Virus record (IMG/VR): IMGVR_UViG_3300042691_033066
Span: 10,077-74,076 of that record
Source of the DNA: a virus
Length of the DNA stretch: 64,000 nucleotides
Direction: 5' to 3' (one strand)
Part shown: positions 14,115-43,302 of the stretch, one piece after another
Numbering within the stretch: position 1 is the first letter of the stretch
Layout of the letters: each line of letters begins with the position of its first letter
Translations under genes and position numbers: made by a program
Notes under the pieces: model-generated
The model's input: only the letters and a program-made list of their open reading frames with translations
Database searches by the model: none
Told to the model about the DNA's origin: nothing

Positions 14115-14480
14115 ATGAAAACTCGGTCAGCAAAAAATAAAGGAAAGCGATTACAAAACGCTCTCCGTGATTTGATACTGGAACACTTTCCGCAATTAGA
14201 ACCCGACGATGTAGTATCTACGTTAATGGGTGACTCGGGGACGGACATAAAATTAAGTCCCGCGGCGCGGAAAGTGTTTCCGTATTCTCCCGAATGTAAG
14301 AACCAAGAAAAATTGAATGTCTGGGCTTCACTAGAACAAGCAGAAAAAAATACAAAGGAAGGAACTTATCCAGTATTATTTTTTAAACGCAACAGAAGTA
14401 AAATGTATGTTGCAATGGACGTAGAACATTTTTTTAATCTTATAAGAAATACACCATCCGTTGACAAAGGTGAGGTATGA
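14115..14480 (+). CDS. Holliday junction resolvase-like PD-(D/E)xK nuclease (T5 D14-like)
   Basis: SAKNKGKRLQ...G.SGTDI.L...ECKNQE...WASLEQA...VLFFKRNRS pattern. Confidence 0.75.
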   Translation: MKTRSAKNKGKRLQNALRDLILEHFPQLEPDDVVSTLMGDSGTDIKLSPAARKVFPYSPECKNQEKLNVWASLEQAEKNTKEGTYPVLFFKRNRSKMYVAMDVEHFFNLIRNTPSVDKGEV

Positions 14481-14489
14481 TGTTAGATT
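14461..14489 (+). promoter_or_regulatory. Sigma70-type promoter for primase and the Mre11-Rad50 fusion
   Basis: TTGACA (14461) - 17 nt - TAGATT (14484), with an extended -10 TG at 14481. Confidence 0.7.
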
Positions 14490-14495
14490 GTAAGT

Positions 14496-15401
14496 ATGAT
14501 TATACTTACACTTCTTCAAGAAATATTAGGTAATTACACTCAACAAAAGGACGAGTATTTATTTGCTTGTCCTTTCTGTCATACGCACAAGAAGAAATTA
14601 TCTGTTAATATAATCAGTAACAAGTGGAAATGTTGGATATGTGGGGCAAAGGGTGGTCACATTATTTGGTTGTTAAAAAAACTTAACGTATCTAAAGATC
14701 TATTAAAAAAGTTTAGAGACGAATTCGGGGACGCAGATCTTAATAAGTTTAAAACAACCACTGCTGAAGTGGTACTCAGACTTCCCCATGAATATAAACC
14801 ACTATGGAAGGTAGAAAAAAGTTACCAGTATTATCATGCAATTAGTTATCTCAAACAACGAGGAATTACCGCAAATGACATCTTACGATATAGGATGGGG
14901 TTTTGTACAGAAGGTCCGTATGCTAATAGAATTATTCTTCCTTCATACGATAGAAACAATCACCTCAATTACTTCACCGCCAGGCTCTTTTACGAAGAAG
15001 GAATGAAGTATAAGAATCCACCCGTGTCCAAAAATATTATTTGTTTTGAGAACATGGTGGATTGGAGTGAACCTATAATTTTATGCGAGGGTATGTTTGA
15101 TGCTATCACACTTCGTCGTAATGCTATACCGTTACTTGGTAAAACGTTACCAAACGAGTTGGAGAAAAAAATTCTACAAGAAAAGGTATCCAACATAATT
15201 ATTTTTCTTGACGAAGATGCACGAAAGGAAGCATTGAAACTTGAACAACACTTGCGTCAATATGATATAGATGTCCGCGTTGTATTGACGAGTGGAAAAG
15301 ACGCAAGTGAGATGGGGTTTGACACTGCGTGGAAAGAAATTGATACCGCACGCCAAACCAATTTTAAGGAACTAATTGAACAACGGTTATTGACTATATG
15401 A
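14496..15401 (+). CDS. DNA primase (Zn finger plus TOPRIM)
   Basis: CPFCH...KCWIC zinc finger; YKNP; ILCEGMFDAI and FLDEDA TOPRIM motifs; GKDASE. Confidence 0.9.
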   Translation: MIILTLLQEILGNYTQQKDEYLFACPFCHTHKKKLSVNIISNKWKCWICGAKGGHIIWLLKKLNVSKDLLKKFRDEFGDADLNKFKTTTAEVVLRLPHEYKPLWKVEKSYQYYHAISYLKQRGITANDILRYRMGFCTEGPYANRIILPSYDRNNHLNYFTARLFYEEGMKYKNPPVSKNIICFENMVDWSEPIILCEGMFDAITLRRNAIPLLGKTLPNELEKKILQEKVSNIIIFLDEDARKEALKLEQHLRQYDIDVRVVLTSGKDASEMGFDTAWKEIDTARQTNFKELIEQRLLTI

Positions 15402-24500: not shown

Positions 24501-25189
24501 ACGTCAGAACCGATGGAAGTTATGGTTCTAAAATGTATTTTGCAACATCTAATAATTACGGAGCCGGCGCAACTACCAGAATGTATGTTGCCCATGACGG
24601 AAAAGTAGGTATCAATACAACATCCCCATCTAGAACACTACATGTAGTAGGTGATATTTTAGGAGAAGGTACCAACGGATATGGATTAAATGCATCATCT
24701 GGGAGATATTATTTCTTTGACAATTTCACAGGGAATAATTATATAGGATTAGGTAGCTCAAACTCCGTTGCTCTAGCGGCAGGTGGTAGTGTTACATTAA
24801 CGGTTACATCTGGAATTCTTGATGTAACTGGTCAAGTACGTGCCACCAACGAAATTACTGCATATTATTCTGACGCTAGACTCAAGAATTTCCACGGAAC
24901 GATTAAAGAATCATTAATTAAAATAACCAAATTAAATGGATATTATTTTACGGAAAATGAAACTGCCAAATCGTTGGGATATAAGAATGATAAGATGCAA
25001 ATTGGAGTAAGTGCGCAAGAAGTACAAGCGGTACTTCCTGAAGCGGTAGTCCCCGCACCCATTGACGATATGTATTTAACAGTCAAGTATGAAAAACTCG
25101 TCCCGTTATTGATAGAAGCAATCAAGGAACAACAAGTATTAATTGAACAACTTCAAGAGCGGGTAAACATGCTAGGTGAGACACGATAA
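18575..25189 (+). CDS. Long tail fibre with baseplate-anchoring N-terminus and C-terminal peptidase S74 intramolecular chaperone
   Basis: 2204 aa with about 14 (G)NVGIGTTSP repeats. Ends YSDARLK...GVSAQEV..VLPEAV...YLTVKYEKLVPLLIEAIKEQ. Confidence 0.88.
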   Translation: MARTRKSIQPLNLYKYDVLIEDQGTRSDYFKISQFDGYFYGGRNAFLVAGAGSLKPNSKILVEILNVDGTTVYSAPVTQFVEGNSRLIQVEIYNDTPIGAGKIVILGSTDTYLDGSPVPPEWKDKYNVRWITDVIISPLIENKTPIRFATTPSVVVEEKFYRIPSSSIFTEKVLVPISVQLTPKYYSVFQNGYQLKISGSQDSQFLSEYQDGIITGSVAVKDGETASLSLPITRIFNSTLAESQGSLIYTNTNKLITEGFISGGGGFYTSSLSPLGTVILTSSLNLQYSKLETFNTGSAVSYANLRVVDAKTLSGEIHKVRVSYKNATDPGEYVTLSDVNVAVQELLAVDSASKIVETGKFNTILANDYWYTATMSLQKNENTPTIPLYYKSSSLISNSIPLTQSNADLLDSINVTPTIVNNAYINDVSYFIGTRTGNSVQVFPRSEYTLAFDAVVSKKSGSVELNQADYSLEVYLVAHENSTTKLLETNLRGQLLGTLTPSSTFTKQNFEGTEFNFTPKIIDSGDFGLRFIAYGGNWNIANISLKPAEEPFFSPDEIDILVPNVNYTDKILSFKLQYLDVNNNSVATSTLSIPTYFTGSEELVITTVTNSVTSSYAETASFVTHQNPGDNRVITSLGSGSLTGESNLRFDGSTLSVTGSMVVSGSSTLRNIGPAQFTGSVNISGSATVTGNLTVSGLLSANSQSITYVSSSQLNVGTNIITVNVQNPIPRFGGIAVIDSGSSPQRSGSLLFDSQNDQWIFVHQNQTNPTSSVLLMGPQTYNNIGNETALTNNYLLKSVNAEHVGDSQVYDNGTNVGIGTASPTEKLEVSGSLKGIGVETSLYNFKNIYGRLSDSLLHVAGGSGLNGLLYLNYNGGTVSIGQSTAAVFSVNAGNGLYVTTGNNVGIGTTSPSGPLQVGPSSGTPMGWVYFNNNVGPSNSTPAAITSLAMGWNPSNGGGEAIIAYGSGSSGGAGGGSARRLSLAEWNGTTLTEVLTLQNAKVGIGTTSPANKLQIGSVGSSGYGGNDLAIGNGTQVMAFYQYSGGPSAWFTNTNFSLMPSGVGSTGNVGIGTTSPTQKLDVNGSIASRGVEIITSDGTANYLKTGAALYLQYGSTNLGILTADGKLGIGTLSPTSLLHLSSSTAQITIDSSNDAASWTSGIILKTKFYRGSGIRYDSKDGNEKWYAGVPYASSYLGYQIGYDGSSAGTPEYLASASLYINSSRNVGIGTTSPGSKLQVAGDIRFGTNGTYTDLRMYTDTALSGYNQTNIITPTTIPGGGTALTALYLKNAVSVGTNRMDLIVDGNVGIGTTSPTAKLVVNGSNNGGLSLAVNGSDTEGTVAKFARGGSEKNFYVNNTNNQYVNLSTEGDFRFKVGVTTDQPYSTGVSAMVISSSGNVGIGTTSPATPLDVSGGTAGTGGWNRTATLTATYPILLFNSNGTKWAGIGYDYSTAMRIWVNSNNNNVSANTSIVTIANTGRVGIGAETPDSLLHIQSASNAIVRIDSTNAVNNAELKLSYNTSDSHGMTLRYNGNNALAYIDNTYPTASGQVYGDIYFRQNINGTMTSRMMIQAQTGNVGIGTTSPGQKLDIVGRLRFRSDGSVSAGAWHTDSSGTQDVFVGQVGTAYTDDWGVYTNGNWRFQIRRGDGLIYLNGKTAFESADSWLRVNQSAAFSSGVWFGSTPNIGLGGTDSYLSLGSNGGTTNSRIYFRAGTYNGTNVMNFDGTTGNAYYAGNIGIGVSPTSNRLDIQGGHTTTTARLYSIGDGATLNASLDMWASEPGVTYDGSGIGNNVNGHPYYGRRNTSLAQSYIRFFNGNIFFDADSTDALGDTRLFISSSGNVGIGTTSPLYKLHNAGTTYVGDTVSFGAGGNSLISWTTGFSDGTTLLLYGPDAGSIYIRPNAANSGIFLKSNGNVGIGTTNPTAKLCVEGGSANWNETTPGTSNGTIHLDPGVATDNFGNAITFGASDSSNGENAQAGIYVRTDGSYGSKMYFATSNNYGAGATTRMYVAHDGKVGINTTSPSRTLHVVGDILGEGTNGYGLNASSGRYYFFDNFTGNNYIGLGSSNSVALAAGGSVTLTVTSGILDVTGQVRATNEITAYYSDARLKNFHGTIKESLIKITKLNGYYFTENETAKSLGYKNDKMQIGVSAQEVQAVLPEAVVPAPIDDMYLTVKYEKLVPLLIEAIKEQQVLIEQLQERVNMLGETR
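21016..24630 (+). repeat. Dispersed coding repeats GNVGIGTTSP (about 14 copies)
   Basis: Recurrent gtyggtatyggtacsacragtcc units separated by variable spacers. Confidence 0.8.
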
Positions 25190-25371
25190 TGGGATTAATA
25201 CCAGCCACAGGATCGGCGATACAGTTGAGTCGCGTTGCAGGTGCGTATGGATTAGCTACGACGAATGCAAAGGTTAATGCTACCGCCGTATCTGCTGGAT
25301 TAAAAACTGCTAATGCGCAAACGCCATTATCGTCTACATTTGGTGGACGTACCACACCAAATACCTATTGA
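25189..25371 (+). CDS. Small fibre-associated protein (60 aa)
   Basis: TAATG coupling to the fibre stop. The IPATGSAIQLS N-terminus resembles small proteins that follow S74 fibres. Confidence 0.6.
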   Translation: MGLIPATGSAIQLSRVAGAYGLATTNAKVNATAVSAGLKTANAQTPLSSTFGGRTTPNTY

Positions 25372-25396
25372 CATATAACGGTTGTGTAATTATATT
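25368..25396 (+). promoter_or_regulatory. Sigma70-type promoter
   Basis: TTGACA (25368) - 17 nt - TATATT (25391), 28 nt before ATG 25425. Confidence 0.7.
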
Positions 25397-25424
25397 TAAC
25401 GATTAACCAATTATTGGGGGTTTT

Positions 25425-25829
25425 ATGAAGTTACGAAACGAACAGATATTAAATGTATTTGCTGGACTGAATTCACTGGGAAATGAAAAGTTTTCCGCAA
25501 AGTTGGCATGGAAAATTTCTACTGCTCGCGGCGCTCTTACTCCGTTCGTGGAATCCTTGGAAAAGGCAATGAGTGAACTGCGACTAAAGTATGCAATCCG
25601 CGACGAAGAAGGGAATCCAGTACCTGCGGTGGATGAAAACGGAAAGTCAGTGGAAGGTACTATACAAGTATCTCGGGAAAACGTCCCGGTATTAAATAAA
25701 GAGTTGACAGATTTGTTAAGTGTAGAAACGGATGTAGAAAACGTTAGTCTCTCCGTCAATGATTTCCCCGATACATTGGAAATCTCACCAAATGCGTTGG
25801 CAGCATTACAACCAATTCTTCATGATTAA
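25425..25829 (+). CDS. Hypothetical protein (DUF1617-like)
   Basis: MKLRNEQI...L..L...K..AKLAWKI...KYA..DEEG...ELTDLL..E pattern; GGGGG ribosome-binding site. Family assignment is from memory. Confidence 0.55.
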   Translation: MKLRNEQILNVFAGLNSLGNEKFSAKLAWKISTARGALTPFVESLEKAMSELRLKYAIRDEEGNPVPAVDENGKSVEGTIQVSRENVPVLNKELTDLLSVETDVENVSLSVNDFPDTLEISPNALAALQPILHD

Positions 25830-25840
25830 ACATATTTGAT

Positions 25841-25883
25841 TATTGGGTAGATATTTATAAGAAGGTTAAATATTTACCCAATA
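25841..25883 (+). promoter_or_regulatory. 17-bp hairpin containing the late-promoter motif, adjacent to the start of ORF 25890
   Basis: tattgggtagatattta (25841-25857) pairs with taaatatttacccaata (25867-25883), with one G-U pair. TATTTATA is at 25852-25859. Confidence 0.75.
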
Positions 25884-25889
25884 TGACTT

Positions 25890-28800
25890 ATGAATGAAGA
25901 AAATAATCCATACGACTCACCAGATTACGCACTCAATGGATTCACGGGAACGTTTAAAAAAGTTCCCCCTCCAGAAGATAAAGAGACGTTAACTCGTCGA
26001 TTTGCCGATTTAGATCCAGTGGACGAGGAAACGTCCAGTACAGAACGAGTTCGTAGGTATTATAAGAGACATCCCGAAAAAGTCCGTAAATATTTAAAGG
26101 ATACCGTGAAAGATCGTGTAGCCCGTAATCGTGATCGGGCAAAAGCCGTTAAAAAACACGGGAAAGAAAAGATGAAAAACCATGACGTGCATCATCCAAA
26201 TGGACCGCAGAACGGTGGTGCACGGCTGGCTAAAAAAGATCATGGTCGGGATAAAGTCAATGAAATTTTTGAGTTGGTAGTGGAAAACACTAACTTACAA
26301 AATATTTATCAATTCGTAGAATATGCCGTCCGACGACTAAACATCAAAAATACTCCAAAAATTGTCGTATTGGAACCGAAACCTGATATGACTTCGTTGG
26401 GATCGTATGACGTACTAACCAATACGATTAGTGTTGTTGCTCGTGGACGGATGTTAGCGGACATTCTTCGGACGATTGCGCACGAGATGGCGCACCAACG
26501 GCAAAATGAAATGGGAATCATCACCAATCCGGCAGTTGATGGAGCAACGGGGTCACCCATAGAAAATCAAGCAAATAGTGTCGCAGGTATCTTATTACGA
26601 GATTACGGACGACAAAATAAAAACATCTATCTATCAGAACACTTATTGGTGGAAGGTGGTGCTCATGGTCATTTAGCACATCCATTTGAAGATACCGATT
26701 TATCGTTTAATGATTTTGATGAAATGATCAATCGGTCATTAGTGGGCAATTTGGAAAAAGAAGGGCCTGTCGTAGAAAAAATGGACGGACAAAATATTGC
26801 CTTTACCATTCGTGATGGTAAGGTGGTCTTTGCACGTAATAAAGGACATCTAAAGAATCGTGCAGAAAAGGCATTGTCTGCCGAAGAATTGACTACAATG
26901 TTTGCTGGTCGTGGAGAGATCTCCGATGCGTTTGCTAAAGCAGCCGAAGACATTGAAGCTGCTATGAGTAAATTATCGCCAGATGAAATTGAACAAGTGT
27001 TTGGAAATGGAAAACGGGTGATGAGTACGGAAATTATTTATCCTGGTACTCGTAATGTTATTCCTTATGATAAGACGGTATTAGTATTTCATGGTACATT
27101 AGAACATGACGATGCTGGAGAAAAGGTCGGTGTTCAAAATACTGAAAATGGAAAAGTCATTGCTAATGCAGTTACTAAAGCAAATGCAGATAAACAACGT
27201 ACATTCGGTATATCTGGTCCACGAACGGTTGCTATTTCTGATCAAGTCACAGAAGAAATGCAACAAGTATATTCTCGTTTATCACAAAAATTAGAAGATC
27301 TTCGTGCGCAGTATAATTTAAAACCAACTGCCACATTACATGATTATTTGGAAGAGTGGTGGGGAGAACGTTTGACTGAAATAGAAAGTCAACAAGGATT
27401 TAAGTTTACTAATCAAGAACGTAGTGGACTTACTGCTCGTTGGATTGATAACGATAAAACATTTGGTGTAAAAAATATATCTGACGAGAAAAAAGAGTGG
27501 TTTAGAGAATTTGAAAAGAATGATTTGAAACCAATGCTTAAGCAATCCGTCAAACCAGTTGAACAAGTATTTTTATCGGCAGGTGTGTACTCATTAAAAC
27601 GGGTAGTTGAATTTTTGTCGGCAAATAATCCCGCAATGACTGATGAATTGAAAAAAGAATTTGCGGACAGTGTGCATGGTATACAACAAGCGGGTGGCCC
27701 TGAAAAATTACAAAAGTTAGAGTATGAACTGGCTAGATTAAAAGAACTTGGTATTGATAACGTGGTACCAAGTGAAGGTTTAATATTCACGTATAATGGA
27801 AATCCGTACAAATTAACGGGTGCATTTGCTCCAGTAAATCAAATTATTGGAACGATGAAATACGATAGAGCTCCTGAAAAGACAGAGACTCCAGCAACAG
27901 AACCTCAAAAAACCGAACCTGCGCCAGAAAAAGTAGCAGATGAACCCGTGCAACCAAAAACTCCAGCACAACCGCCCAAACCCATTGCAATTTATCCAGG
28001 ACGGTTTCAACCATATCATGCGGGACATCATGTTACGTATGAAGCATTGGTTGAAAAGTTTGGAAAAGAAAATGTGTATGTGGTGAGTTCAGACAAACAA
28101 GATAGTATTACGTCACCATTTGGTTTTAGTGACAAACAGGAAATCATGACAAGTATGTTTGATATCCCAGAAGATCGTATTATCCAAGTAAAAAATCCAT
28201 ACAATCCAATAGAGTTAACAAAGCAATTACCAGAAGGAACTCCTGTAGTATTTGCGGTCGGTGAAAAAGACGCTCAACGATTGGGTGGTAAATACTTCCA
28301 AAAATATGATCCAAATGAAAAAATGGTAGGATACAAGCAAGCTGGATATGTGTGGATTGGACCACCACCAAATCTGGAAGTTAATGGAAAAGAAATCAGT
28401 GGAACGCAACTTCGGGCAGTTATGGGCGATCCGGCAATTACTGATAGAGCAAAGCAAGAAATTTTTACCAAAATATATGGTAAATTTGATAAGAAAATTT
28501 TTGATAAAGTGGTCAAAAAAACGTCTGATGCAGAAGAAGCTAAAAAGATAACCGCACAACACGGTGAAGAACCAGTTGTCGCAGAACCTGGTGCGAAAAA
28601 ACCAACGAAAGGAAAAGGTAAAAAACCAGACGAAAAAGCATTGGGCCGTGCTAAATCCGTATTGGGTCAAAAAGTTCGTAATCCAAAAACTGATCGTGAC
28701 ATTCTAGTTGCAACTGCCTTGAAATACCCAACAGACGAACCCGTACGAAAAGCAGCAGAACGAATGGTACAACAAGCAATGTCACAAAAAGAAGGAGTGC

Positions 28801-29516
28801 TTACCGAAAATACAAAGTCTGATAAATTGAAAGTCTATGTATCTATACGAGAATACACGGACGAAGATTTGGAAAATGAAGCAGACGAGTATTTTAAAAA
28901 CGAACGGACGTTAAAGACATTCCCAGATATTTTTGATAGTTCCGCAGAACTTAAGAAAGCTATTATGAATGCTCCCAGTGAAGTCTTAACTGTTGATGAG
29001 TTAAATAATTTAGAAAACAGTGATGTACCCGATGTCTTAGGTGGAAAGAATAAGATGCAGGTATTAAAGAAATTATTGGGTCGTAAACAGGATGTCACGG
29101 GATTATTAAAAGATATTAAAGCAAGAAAACCCGTTGCCATGCCGATTGTGATCAAACACACCAATGGATATTATTTGTTGGGAGGAAACACGAGATTGTC
29201 GGTATTGGCAGCAATTGGACATACGATGCCGGTCAAAGTATTGGGACATGGTAGTCCATATCCATCACCATACGTACATGCAACATCCGGTGATGCATCC
29301 AAAGGTAAACAGAAAAAAACTGGTAACAAGGATTTATTTAAAAAATTGATGCAAATGAGAATCACTAACCCAGAAACCGGCAACCAAGTAAAAGTTGATA
29401 CGGCAATGGATTATGATCGTTTACATCCCGCTCATAAGGCAGCTATGGCGTTTATTCGTCAAAACATGAAGGGACTATCCAACAGAGCAGGAATACCAAA
29501 AAACAGAACCGACTAA
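25890..29516 (+). CDS. Multidomain protein: basic/HNH-like segment, HExxH peptidase, ligase-fold nucleotidyltransferase (DUF6267-like), HxGH cytidylyltransferase-like and ParB-like domains
   Basis: Motifs HDVHH; AHEMAH...ENQAN; EKMDG...STE...SEG...YKLTG; YPGRFQPYHAGH...ISGT; YLLGGNTRL. Confidence 0.75.
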   Translation: MNEENNPYDSPDYALNGFTGTFKKVPPPEDKETLTRRFADLDPVDEETSSTERVRRYYKRHPEKVRKYLKDTVKDRVARNRDRAKAVKKHGKEKMKNHDVHHPNGPQNGGARLAKKDHGRDKVNEIFELVVENTNLQNIYQFVEYAVRRLNIKNTPKIVVLEPKPDMTSLGSYDVLTNTISVVARGRMLADILRTIAHEMAHQRQNEMGIITNPAVDGATGSPIENQANSVAGILLRDYGRQNKNIYLSEHLLVEGGAHGHLAHPFEDTDLSFNDFDEMINRSLVGNLEKEGPVVEKMDGQNIAFTIRDGKVVFARNKGHLKNRAEKALSAEELTTMFAGRGEISDAFAKAAEDIEAAMSKLSPDEIEQVFGNGKRVMSTEIIYPGTRNVIPYDKTVLVFHGTLEHDDAGEKVGVQNTENGKVIANAVTKANADKQRTFGISGPRTVAISDQVTEEMQQVYSRLSQKLEDLRAQYNLKPTATLHDYLEEWWGERLTEIESQQGFKFTNQERSGLTARWIDNDKTFGVKNISDEKKEWFREFEKNDLKPMLKQSVKPVEQVFLSAGVYSLKRVVEFLSANNPAMTDELKKEFADSVHGIQQAGGPEKLQKLEYELARLKELGIDNVVPSEGLIFTYNGNPYKLTGAFAPVNQIIGTMKYDRAPEKTETPATEPQKTEPAPEKVADEPVQPKTPAQPPKPIAIYPGRFQPYHAGHHVTYEALVEKFGKENVYVVSSDKQDSITSPFGFSDKQEIMTSMFDIPEDRIIQVKNPYNPIELTKQLPEGTPVVFAVGEKDAQRLGGKYFQKYDPNEKMVGYKQAGYVWIGPPPNLEVNGKEISGTQLRAVMGDPAITDRAKQEIFTKIYGKFDKKIFDKVVKKTSDAEEAKKITAQHGEEPVVAEPGAKKPTKGKGKKPDEKALGRAKSVLGQKVRNPKTDRDILVATALKYPTDEPVRKAAERMVQQAMSQKEGVLTENTKSDKLKVYVSIREYTDEDLENEADEYFKNERTLKTFPDIFDSSAELKKAIMNAPSEVLTVDELNNLENSDVPDVLGGKNKMQVLKKLLGRKQDVTGLLKDIKARKPVAMPIVIKHTNGYYLLGGNTRLSVLAAIGHTMPVKVLGHGSPYPSPYVHATSGDASKGKQKKTGNKDLFKKLMQMRITNPETGNQVKVDTAMDYDRLHPAHKAAMAFIRQNMKGLSNRAGIPKNRTD

Positions 29517-43271: not shown

Positions 43272-43302
43272 TACGATTCTTTCGTAACGTAGTGAATAAA
43301 TT

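Follow-up and report, generated by a model that had tools for sequence, protein, structure and literature searches.

We analysed a 64,000-nucleotide (nt) stretch of virus DNA (hereafter the window), which corresponds to bases 10077-74076 of the single 74,076-bp virus record IMGVR_UViG_3300042691_033066 of IMG/VR, and focused on a long RNA hairpin between a gene of 134 amino acids (aa) and a 1208-aa multidomain gene. An early-class promoter stands ahead of the 134-aa gene, and a late-type promoter motif, TATTTATA, is nested in the hairpin itself. We read this arrangement as a compact transcription-unit boundary in the structural block, at which the hairpin would insulate the downstream gene from upstream transcription and the nested late promoter would bypass the hairpin, with an effect that in the window would fall mainly on translation; in our judgement this reading has an even chance of being right. 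It is carried by the elements themselves and the classes to which they belong, by the conservation of the module with covariation in relatives, and by the folding energetics. The features are listed below (SD, Shine-Dalgarno sequence).

25368..25396, + strand: early (host sigma70-class) promoter TTGACA-17-TATATT, intergenic; TTGACA at 25368-25373, TATATT at 25391-25396, predicted start near 25403
25425..25829, + strand: gene of the early cassette for a 134-aa protein of unknown function (phrog_1401, PHROG match at E 4.4e-6); stop codon 25827-25829
25831..25834, + strand: 5' half (CAUA) of a weak 4-bp outer helix, pairing with UAUG at 25889-25892, AUG included
25841..25857, + strand: 5' arm of the 17-bp hairpin, pairing with 25867-25883; one G-U
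25852..25859, + strand: late-type promoter motif TATTTATA across the border of 5' arm (six bases) and loop (two bases); predicted late start ~25865
25858..25866, + strand: 9-nt loop TAAGAAGGT, containing the SD-like AAGAAGG
25867..25883, + strand: 3' arm of the hairpin; makes up the greater part of the late leader, which is A/U-rich and SD-less
25890..29516, + strand: 1208-aa multidomain gene downstream of the hairpin, with a cytidylyltransferase-like domain at residues 701-842 (Pfam PF01467, phrog_395)

A rare hairpin with a nested late-type promoter

The stop codon of the 134-aa gene is followed by the main stem at a distance of 11 nt, and 6 nt separate the stem from ATG 25890. The stem folds with a minimum free energy (MFE) of -21 kcal/mol (z = -5.3 to -5.4; 0/200 shuffles fold as well), and RNA starting at 25865 folds at only -1.2 kcal/mol, the difference between long and short leaders that the first-pass annotation had expected from this 17-bp stem, whose position and late motif it had also located correctly. 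The outer helix CAUA/UAUG is present in both the MFE and the centroid structures and contributes ~2.7 kcal/mol. The stem is the longest near-perfect inverted repeat in the window and, when uninterrupted stems of at least 14 bp with at most one G-U and a loop of 3-12 were scanned, the sole one in the 64 kb, with none in 30 Markov shuffles.

We further examined whether the nested motif belongs to a recurrent class. TATTTAT is present in 28 copies on the + strand of the contig, 14 of which touch the 2.8% of the DNA that is non-coding (binomial P = 4.5e-15), and three further copies fall in the final 30-50 nt of a preceding gene. For the 8-mer TATTTATA, 13 of the 14 contig copies are on the coding strand, and the distance to the start codon is 23-41 nt in most intergenic cases (30 nt for the copy at 25852). 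Judged by sequence, the TATTTATA copy in the hairpin counts among the late-type promoters of the phage. The late motif of T4-type phages occupies -13 to -6 (PMC1524935), and this rule places the late start at ~25865, 2 nt short of the 3' arm, so that the late RNA would contain none of the 5' arm. The usual layout on the contig is a separate GC-rich terminator followed 15-25 nt later by TATTTAT, and none of the other TATTTAT sites in the contig overlaps a comparable stem, as had been noted before.

Among the related loci (given here as L numbers and G001), TATTTATA is on the coding strand in L002, L003 and L005 as in the window, and TATAAATA is on the coding strand in L123-L134 and G001. Each motif is the reverse complement of the other, and positions 4-5 tell them apart. 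Two late motifs in related clades suggest a shift in late-sigma specificity; no gp55-like late sigma turned up in the nine genes at the start of the contig, and the record does not extend to the rest of the genome.

We then assessed the hairpin as a terminator. Its tail is UGACUUAUG instead of a U-tract, and its d'Aubenton-Carafa T score is 1.33, compared with 2.2-4.1 for the equivalent hairpins of relatives and 5.0 for a canonical terminator at 43295 in the window. With 3/17 G-C pairs and an A-U-rich base, it has neither the GC-rich stem nor the immediate U-tract of an intrinsic terminator, and the terminator scan did not pick it up. As a terminator, the window hairpin looks weak, in line with the earlier observation that no U-tailed terminator follows the 134-aa gene; indeed, none lies anywhere between the early promoter and 25890.

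The early promoter and the 134-aa gene

The promoter at 25368-25396 had been proposed to drive the gene starting at 25425, and both its coordinates and its class were borne out. It scores 11/12, the best sigma70-type match in 16 kb; the box ends 28 nt upstream of ATG 25425, and a GGGGG SD precedes that ATG. TTGACA-16/17-TAnnTT is present ahead of the orthologous 134-aa gene at 8 distinct loci (including L123, L124, L126, L128, L130, L131, and L134), where the spacer sequence and the distance to the ATG vary while the box stays. G001 has 26 copies of TTGACA-N16-18-TAnn[AT]T on the coding strand and none on the opposite strand (2.7 expected); most copies lie 20-50 nt ahead of an SD and ATG, TATATT is the commonest -10 box, and four copies fall within the structural region. 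The early-class consensus from G001 is TTGACAAA...TATATT, and the window box equals it. As far as sequence can tell, the sigma70-type box of the window is a genuine early-class promoter.

Several further sites bear on this promoter class. A second exact TTGACA-17-TATATT was found at L137:1205-1233, before the window, in the same TTATATTTAA context; the genes behind it (UvdE-like endonuclease, glycosyltransferase, and dehydrogenase) form an early-type block at the contig start. At L123:947-975, TATAAATA lies within the 17-nt spacer of the early promoter ahead of the 134-aa gene, a gene that would have both early and late promoters. At L135:1960-2000, the closest relative (95% over the first 40 residues), TATTTATA and not a TTGACA box stands 17 nt before the ATG of the 134-aa gene; members of the clade thus differ in the kind of promoter ahead of this gene. 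In the window at 14461-14498, TTGACA-17-TAGATT ends 6 nt before ATG 14496, a possible source of a leaderless early transcript within the structural block.

The 134-aa protein has 38 homologues, of which P0002-P0011 are 84-92% identical. Its AlphaFold model (pLDDT 92) resembles 30 BFVD proteins from diverse tailed phages, all uncharacterised, which makes the protein a member of a widespread phage family; a Foldseek search of the model against the PDB gave no fold match, and tblastn of the protein against phage records gave no match.

Relatives carry the cassette hairpin as a predicted terminator

We next compared the hairpin with its equivalents in relatives whose 134-aa protein is 48-60% identical to that of the window. 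There, a hairpin with a stem of 14-23 pairs comes after the 134-aa gene; its loop, GTATAAATAG, is the late consensus of T4 and is invariant, as is the U5 tract behind the stem (at least seven relatives). GAGG follows, and then the ATG that opens a different late gene, of the head-tail adaptor family (PHROGs). The stems differ in sequence and keep their pairing: 95% of cells are paired and 8/21 pairs are changed on both sides, a value that 0/500 shuffles reach, and slid controls show 39-56% pairing and 1-3 double-changed pairs. By its predicted features, the relatives' hairpin is a canonical intrinsic terminator with a restart promoter in its loop, and RNA begun 6 nt past the motif would be without the 5' arm and is predicted to be unable to terminate. 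The other TATAAATA sites in related loci are ordinary and not nested in hairpins, so the nested arrangement is specific to the 134-aa cassette. Since the stem base TTGGGT/ACCCAA and its position are shared between the window and L123, we read the window hairpin as a local descendant of the relatives' terminator.

Two other hairpins that carry TATAAATA in the 5' arm or loop were observed on the minus strand of G001. At G001:109416, the 5' arm contains TATAAATA and the 3' arm AGGAGG, with an ATG immediately behind the stem; at G001:111203, AAGGAG and an ATG come after the stem. Both precede small Cys-rich genes (MKTCKNCSKE.. and MVGKCLNCEK..), as do T4 homing-endonuclease masks. By prediction, the phage group uses textbook T4-type masks at these sites.

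The hairpin follows the cassette, not the large gene

The first-pass annotation had cast the hairpin as a lock on the product of the 1208-aa gene, taken to be a toxic polyprotein destined for the virion. Because the relatives pair the cassette and its hairpin with a head-tail adaptor gene, the hairpin belongs to the early cassette and not to the 1208-aa gene. Homologues of the large gene in L005 and L008 have TATTTAT(A/T) and no nested hairpin, and L121 (70%) has neither the TTGACA box nor the hairpin. L003 and L004 share the late promoter and leader and a 74% identical large gene, with no 134-aa gene upstream (the upstream genes of L003 are tail-fibre-like instead); there, the 5' arm has changed from tattggg to tactgta without compensation, and the fold is reduced to -7.4 kcal/mol (z -0.9). 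Given that some homologues lack the hairpin and L003 has lost the stem, the toxic-cargo rationale finds no support.

In L119, the 82% relative, the window-type hairpin is kept and extended by 3 bp towards the AUG (-23.2 kcal/mol). The 3' arm sequence is kept in both L119 and L003, even with a diverged 5' arm, and the start codon and leader of the 1208-aa gene are likewise conserved in both. The genes on both sides differ among the window, L003, and the TATAAATA-clade loci, which marks the site as a junction of variable gene content.

An SD-less leader predicted to be exposed by late transcription

The 1208-aa gene has the weakest SD of the 65 contig genes (+0.7 kcal/mol against a median of -5.0); the other weak-SD genes of this otherwise SD-rich contig are translationally coupled. 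Its homologues in L005 and L008 are also without an SD. In the late leader (25866-25889), 17/24 nt are the hairpin 3' arm, and, as the gene has no SD, this unstructured A/U-rich leader is the sole ribosome-recruiting feature. Around AUG 25890, the energy needed to open positions -20..+13 is 19 kcal/mol when the RNA starts at 25403, as against 2.4 kcal/mol when it starts at 25865; for -6..+13 the values are 5.8 and 1.8 kcal/mol, respectively. The AAGAAGG of the loop was considered as a split or displayed SD and rejected: it is 23 nt from AUG 25890 and 16 nt from an out-of-frame AUG at 25883, it lies mostly upstream of the predicted late start, and one arm, not the whole hairpin, separates it from the AUG.

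A PDB sequence search with the 1208-aa protein gave no match. L119 (L119:2466-2790) and the dominant strain of four DNA runs carry a 318-nt in-frame insertion (106 aa) after codon 2 of the large gene (window 25890-25895), and the L005 homologue (53%) has an N-terminal extension too.

Proposed mechanism and alternative explanations

Taken as a boundary, the region may work as follows. The host-sigma70-class promoter at 25368-25396 would drive the small 134-aa gene, and this early transcript, together with read-through from the upstream tail-fibre operon, would run into the 17-bp hairpin at 25841-25883. Late RNA from the TATTTATA in the hairpin tip would start at ~25865, at the border of loop and 3' arm, and, having no 5' arm, would form no hairpin. 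In the U-tailed version of the relatives, insulation would be transcriptional. In the window lineage, the U-tract would have been lost and the stem would have come to abut the start codon of a newly adjacent SD-less gene of 1208 aa, so that translation would most likely be the step affected, perhaps alongside some pausing or incomplete termination. On read-through RNAs, the stem would tie up the A/U-rich leader (-23..-7) and translation would be poor; on late RNAs, the leader would be open. With no U-tract left and a stem that stops 6 nt short of an SD-less AUG, a translational mask on read-through RNA is plausible, although such a mask would be atypical. Early and late transcripts were the two states envisaged before; of that proposal, an early-class promoter and the lack of a U-tailed terminator before 25890 stand at the level of sequence. 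Late read-through from the tail fibres would carry the full hairpin as well, and expression of the large gene would therefore depend on its own promoter and not simply on time.

Several points weigh against this interpretation. The main stem spans -49..-7 and holds neither the AUG nor any SD; opening AUG 25890 alone costs 0.9-2.2 kcal/mol, so the AUG is nearly free, and a stem that ends at -7 could occupy the usual place of the SD helix and be tolerated. L119 and L132 keep the hairpin without a clear TTGACA box, which makes the association between hairpin and early promoter imperfect. The homology between the window hairpin and those of the relatives rests on position and a 6-bp stem base, and MAFFT aligns the window hairpin with the TATAAATA-clade hairpins differently, in an alignment that is unreliable. 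The covariation that had been suggested as a check is present in the relatives' cassette hairpins, but the three window-type versions found are too alike to show it; pattern scans of IMG/VR for either arm returned these three known versions plus chance or coding matches only, and in L003, the one divergent version, the stem is disrupted with no compensating change. The folding energies were computed with 37 C parameters, which may not suit the host. The start sites, the read-through, and the effect on translation are predictions.

As to origin, we tentatively propose, as a possibility we would not put high, that the cassette is an early-promoter moron in the late region of an uncultured freshwater T4-like clade, with a terminator that houses a restart late promoter in its loop, and that in the passage from TATAAATA to TATTTATA one sub-clade converted this terminator into a translational mask for a new SD-less neighbour. 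If true, this conversion would make it possible to observe how insulation evolved from the transcriptional to the translational level.

It is unlikely that the hairpin is a plain terminator or attenuator, which would stop upstream transcription, let the nested promoter restart it, and leave translation unregulated. Such a role would fit the covarying U5 hairpins of at least seven relatives, the terminator-then-TATTTAT layout common on the contig, and the stem-loops of the RB49 and phi1 PeSL cassettes, which overlap promoters and are strong terminators (PMC2839356). It does not fit the window hairpin, with its low T score, few G-C pairs, and A-U-rich base; GC-richness and U runs mark the terminators that can be recognised in this phage.

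We consider it rather improbable that the stem is a decaying relic at a cassette junction, left from an ancestral terminator after recombination at a PeSL-type shuffling point and with no present regulatory role. The perfect 17-bp stem of the window recurs, extended, in the 82% relative despite ~18% coding divergence nearby, and decay is confined to the relative that is missing the upstream cassette. These observations have to be set against the exchange of genes on both sides (1208-aa gene or head-tail adaptor downstream; 134-aa gene or, in L003, tail-fibre-like genes upstream), the breakdown of L003 similarity inside the 5' arm, and the L005 and L008 homologues that manage without a hairpin.

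There is little to recommend a 3'-end stabiliser that protects the 134-aa mRNA, or an RNase III cut that separates the messages. The stem begins far enough past the stop codon (11 nt) that a terminating ribosome would not melt it, and a 17-bp duplex is near the size of an RNase III substrate; nothing specific supports either role, and both would leave the nested late promoter and the stem abutting the next AUG unexplained. Finally, a DNA operator at which a dimeric regulator of the late promoter binds the inverted repeat is most improbable, even with dyad symmetry that overlaps the promoter motif and the precedent of I-TevI, which represses its own late promoter via an operator (PMC2988022), because the relatives keep pairing while stem sequence changes (8 pairs on both sides), as expected of a folded strand and not a protein site, and the 17-bp arm is much longer than typical half-sites.

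Source record and genome context

Every gene of the record is on the + strand, and its gene content is almost all structural (tail fibres, sheath, terminase, and baseplate). By terminase, the closest cultured phages are Flavobacterium phage immuto (160 kb) and Microcystis phage Mel-JY01 (190 kb), at ~52% identity. The relative record G001 is 177,878 bp long (99% complete) and a second relative contig reaches 131,861 bp; the 74-kb record is thus a fragment of a large T4-like genome. At the DNA level, the stretch occurs in freshwater and 'fungus' metagenomes, and no RNA run was found to contain it. The DNA contigs of four runs showed the strain of the window itself and the L119-type relative, and nothing else. 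A metagenome scan returned six loci, five of which repeat known contig types and one of which covers the first 17 residues alone. Two scans of genome contigs gave no match, nor did megablast of the region against phage records, and Rfam returned no covariance-model match at E <= 1 for positions 25100-26100.

Comparison with known systems

In T4, the genes e, soc, 49, and I-TevI have the SD and/or AUG in a helix, with a late promoter in the part that encodes the 5' strand (PMC3014915, PMC2988022). The window resembles these masks, and those of I-TevII/III, segB, and Aeh1 mobE, in having a long RNA hairpin beside a late gene start and an 8-bp late promoter in the DNA of the 5' strand, and to this extent the T4 layout that had been claimed for it stands. 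It differs in that the T4 SD or AUG lies inside the helix, whereas the window gene has no SD and its AUG is 6 nt outside the main stem; strict membership in the e/soc/49/I-TevI class therefore fails. The window also has TATTTATA in place of TATAAATA, and its hairpin is evolutionarily tied to the upstream early cassette rather than to the regulated gene. Functional likeness to the T4 masks is possible, given the predicted 19 versus 2.4 kcal/mol needed to open -20..+13. A similar geometry is that of seg43(25) of Aeromonas phage 25, an untested, very stable hairpin just upstream of a ribosome-binding site (RBS) that it does not sequester (PMC2988022); there, the RBS is just below the stem, and the part of the account consulted here describes no nested late promoter or early cassette.

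The findings show the T4 principle, in which a promoter lies within the very structure that it has to escape, in a phage group that is distant and uncultured, and supply sequence definitions for its early (TTGACA-17-TATATT) and late (TATTTATA) promoter classes. In the relatives, a covariation-supported 8-bp late promoter in the loop of an intrinsic terminator makes a very compact stop-and-restart signal, which may help to locate operon boundaries when T4-like metagenomic genomes are annotated and might also serve as a part in synthetic biology.

Lambdoid morons (promoter-ORF-terminator, where ORF is open reading frame; the concept is cited in PMC1524935) are alike in their single small ORF with a host-type promoter and, in the relatives, its own terminator, placed between late structural genes. 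The present case differs in belonging to a lytic T4-like phage without prophage expression, in a terminator that houses a restart promoter, and in the U-tract missing from the window. The PeSL cassettes of RB49 and phi1 (Arbiol et al. 2010, PMC2839356) have stem-loop terminators or attenuators that overlap early promoters. Both systems have a promoter overlapped by a stem-loop, flank small genes of unknown function, also in virion modules, and sit at recombination-prone junctions (PMC2839356), and here, too, gene content at the junction differs between close relatives. However, the PeSL stem-loop overlaps a sigma70-type early promoter and that of the window a late motif; the early promoter of the window is 470 nt upstream of the stem-loop and has no notable stem. 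The e/soc/I-TevI masks and PeSL-type cassettes may be linked via a plausible evolutionary intermediate, and the window module is the late-promoter counterpart of PeSL.

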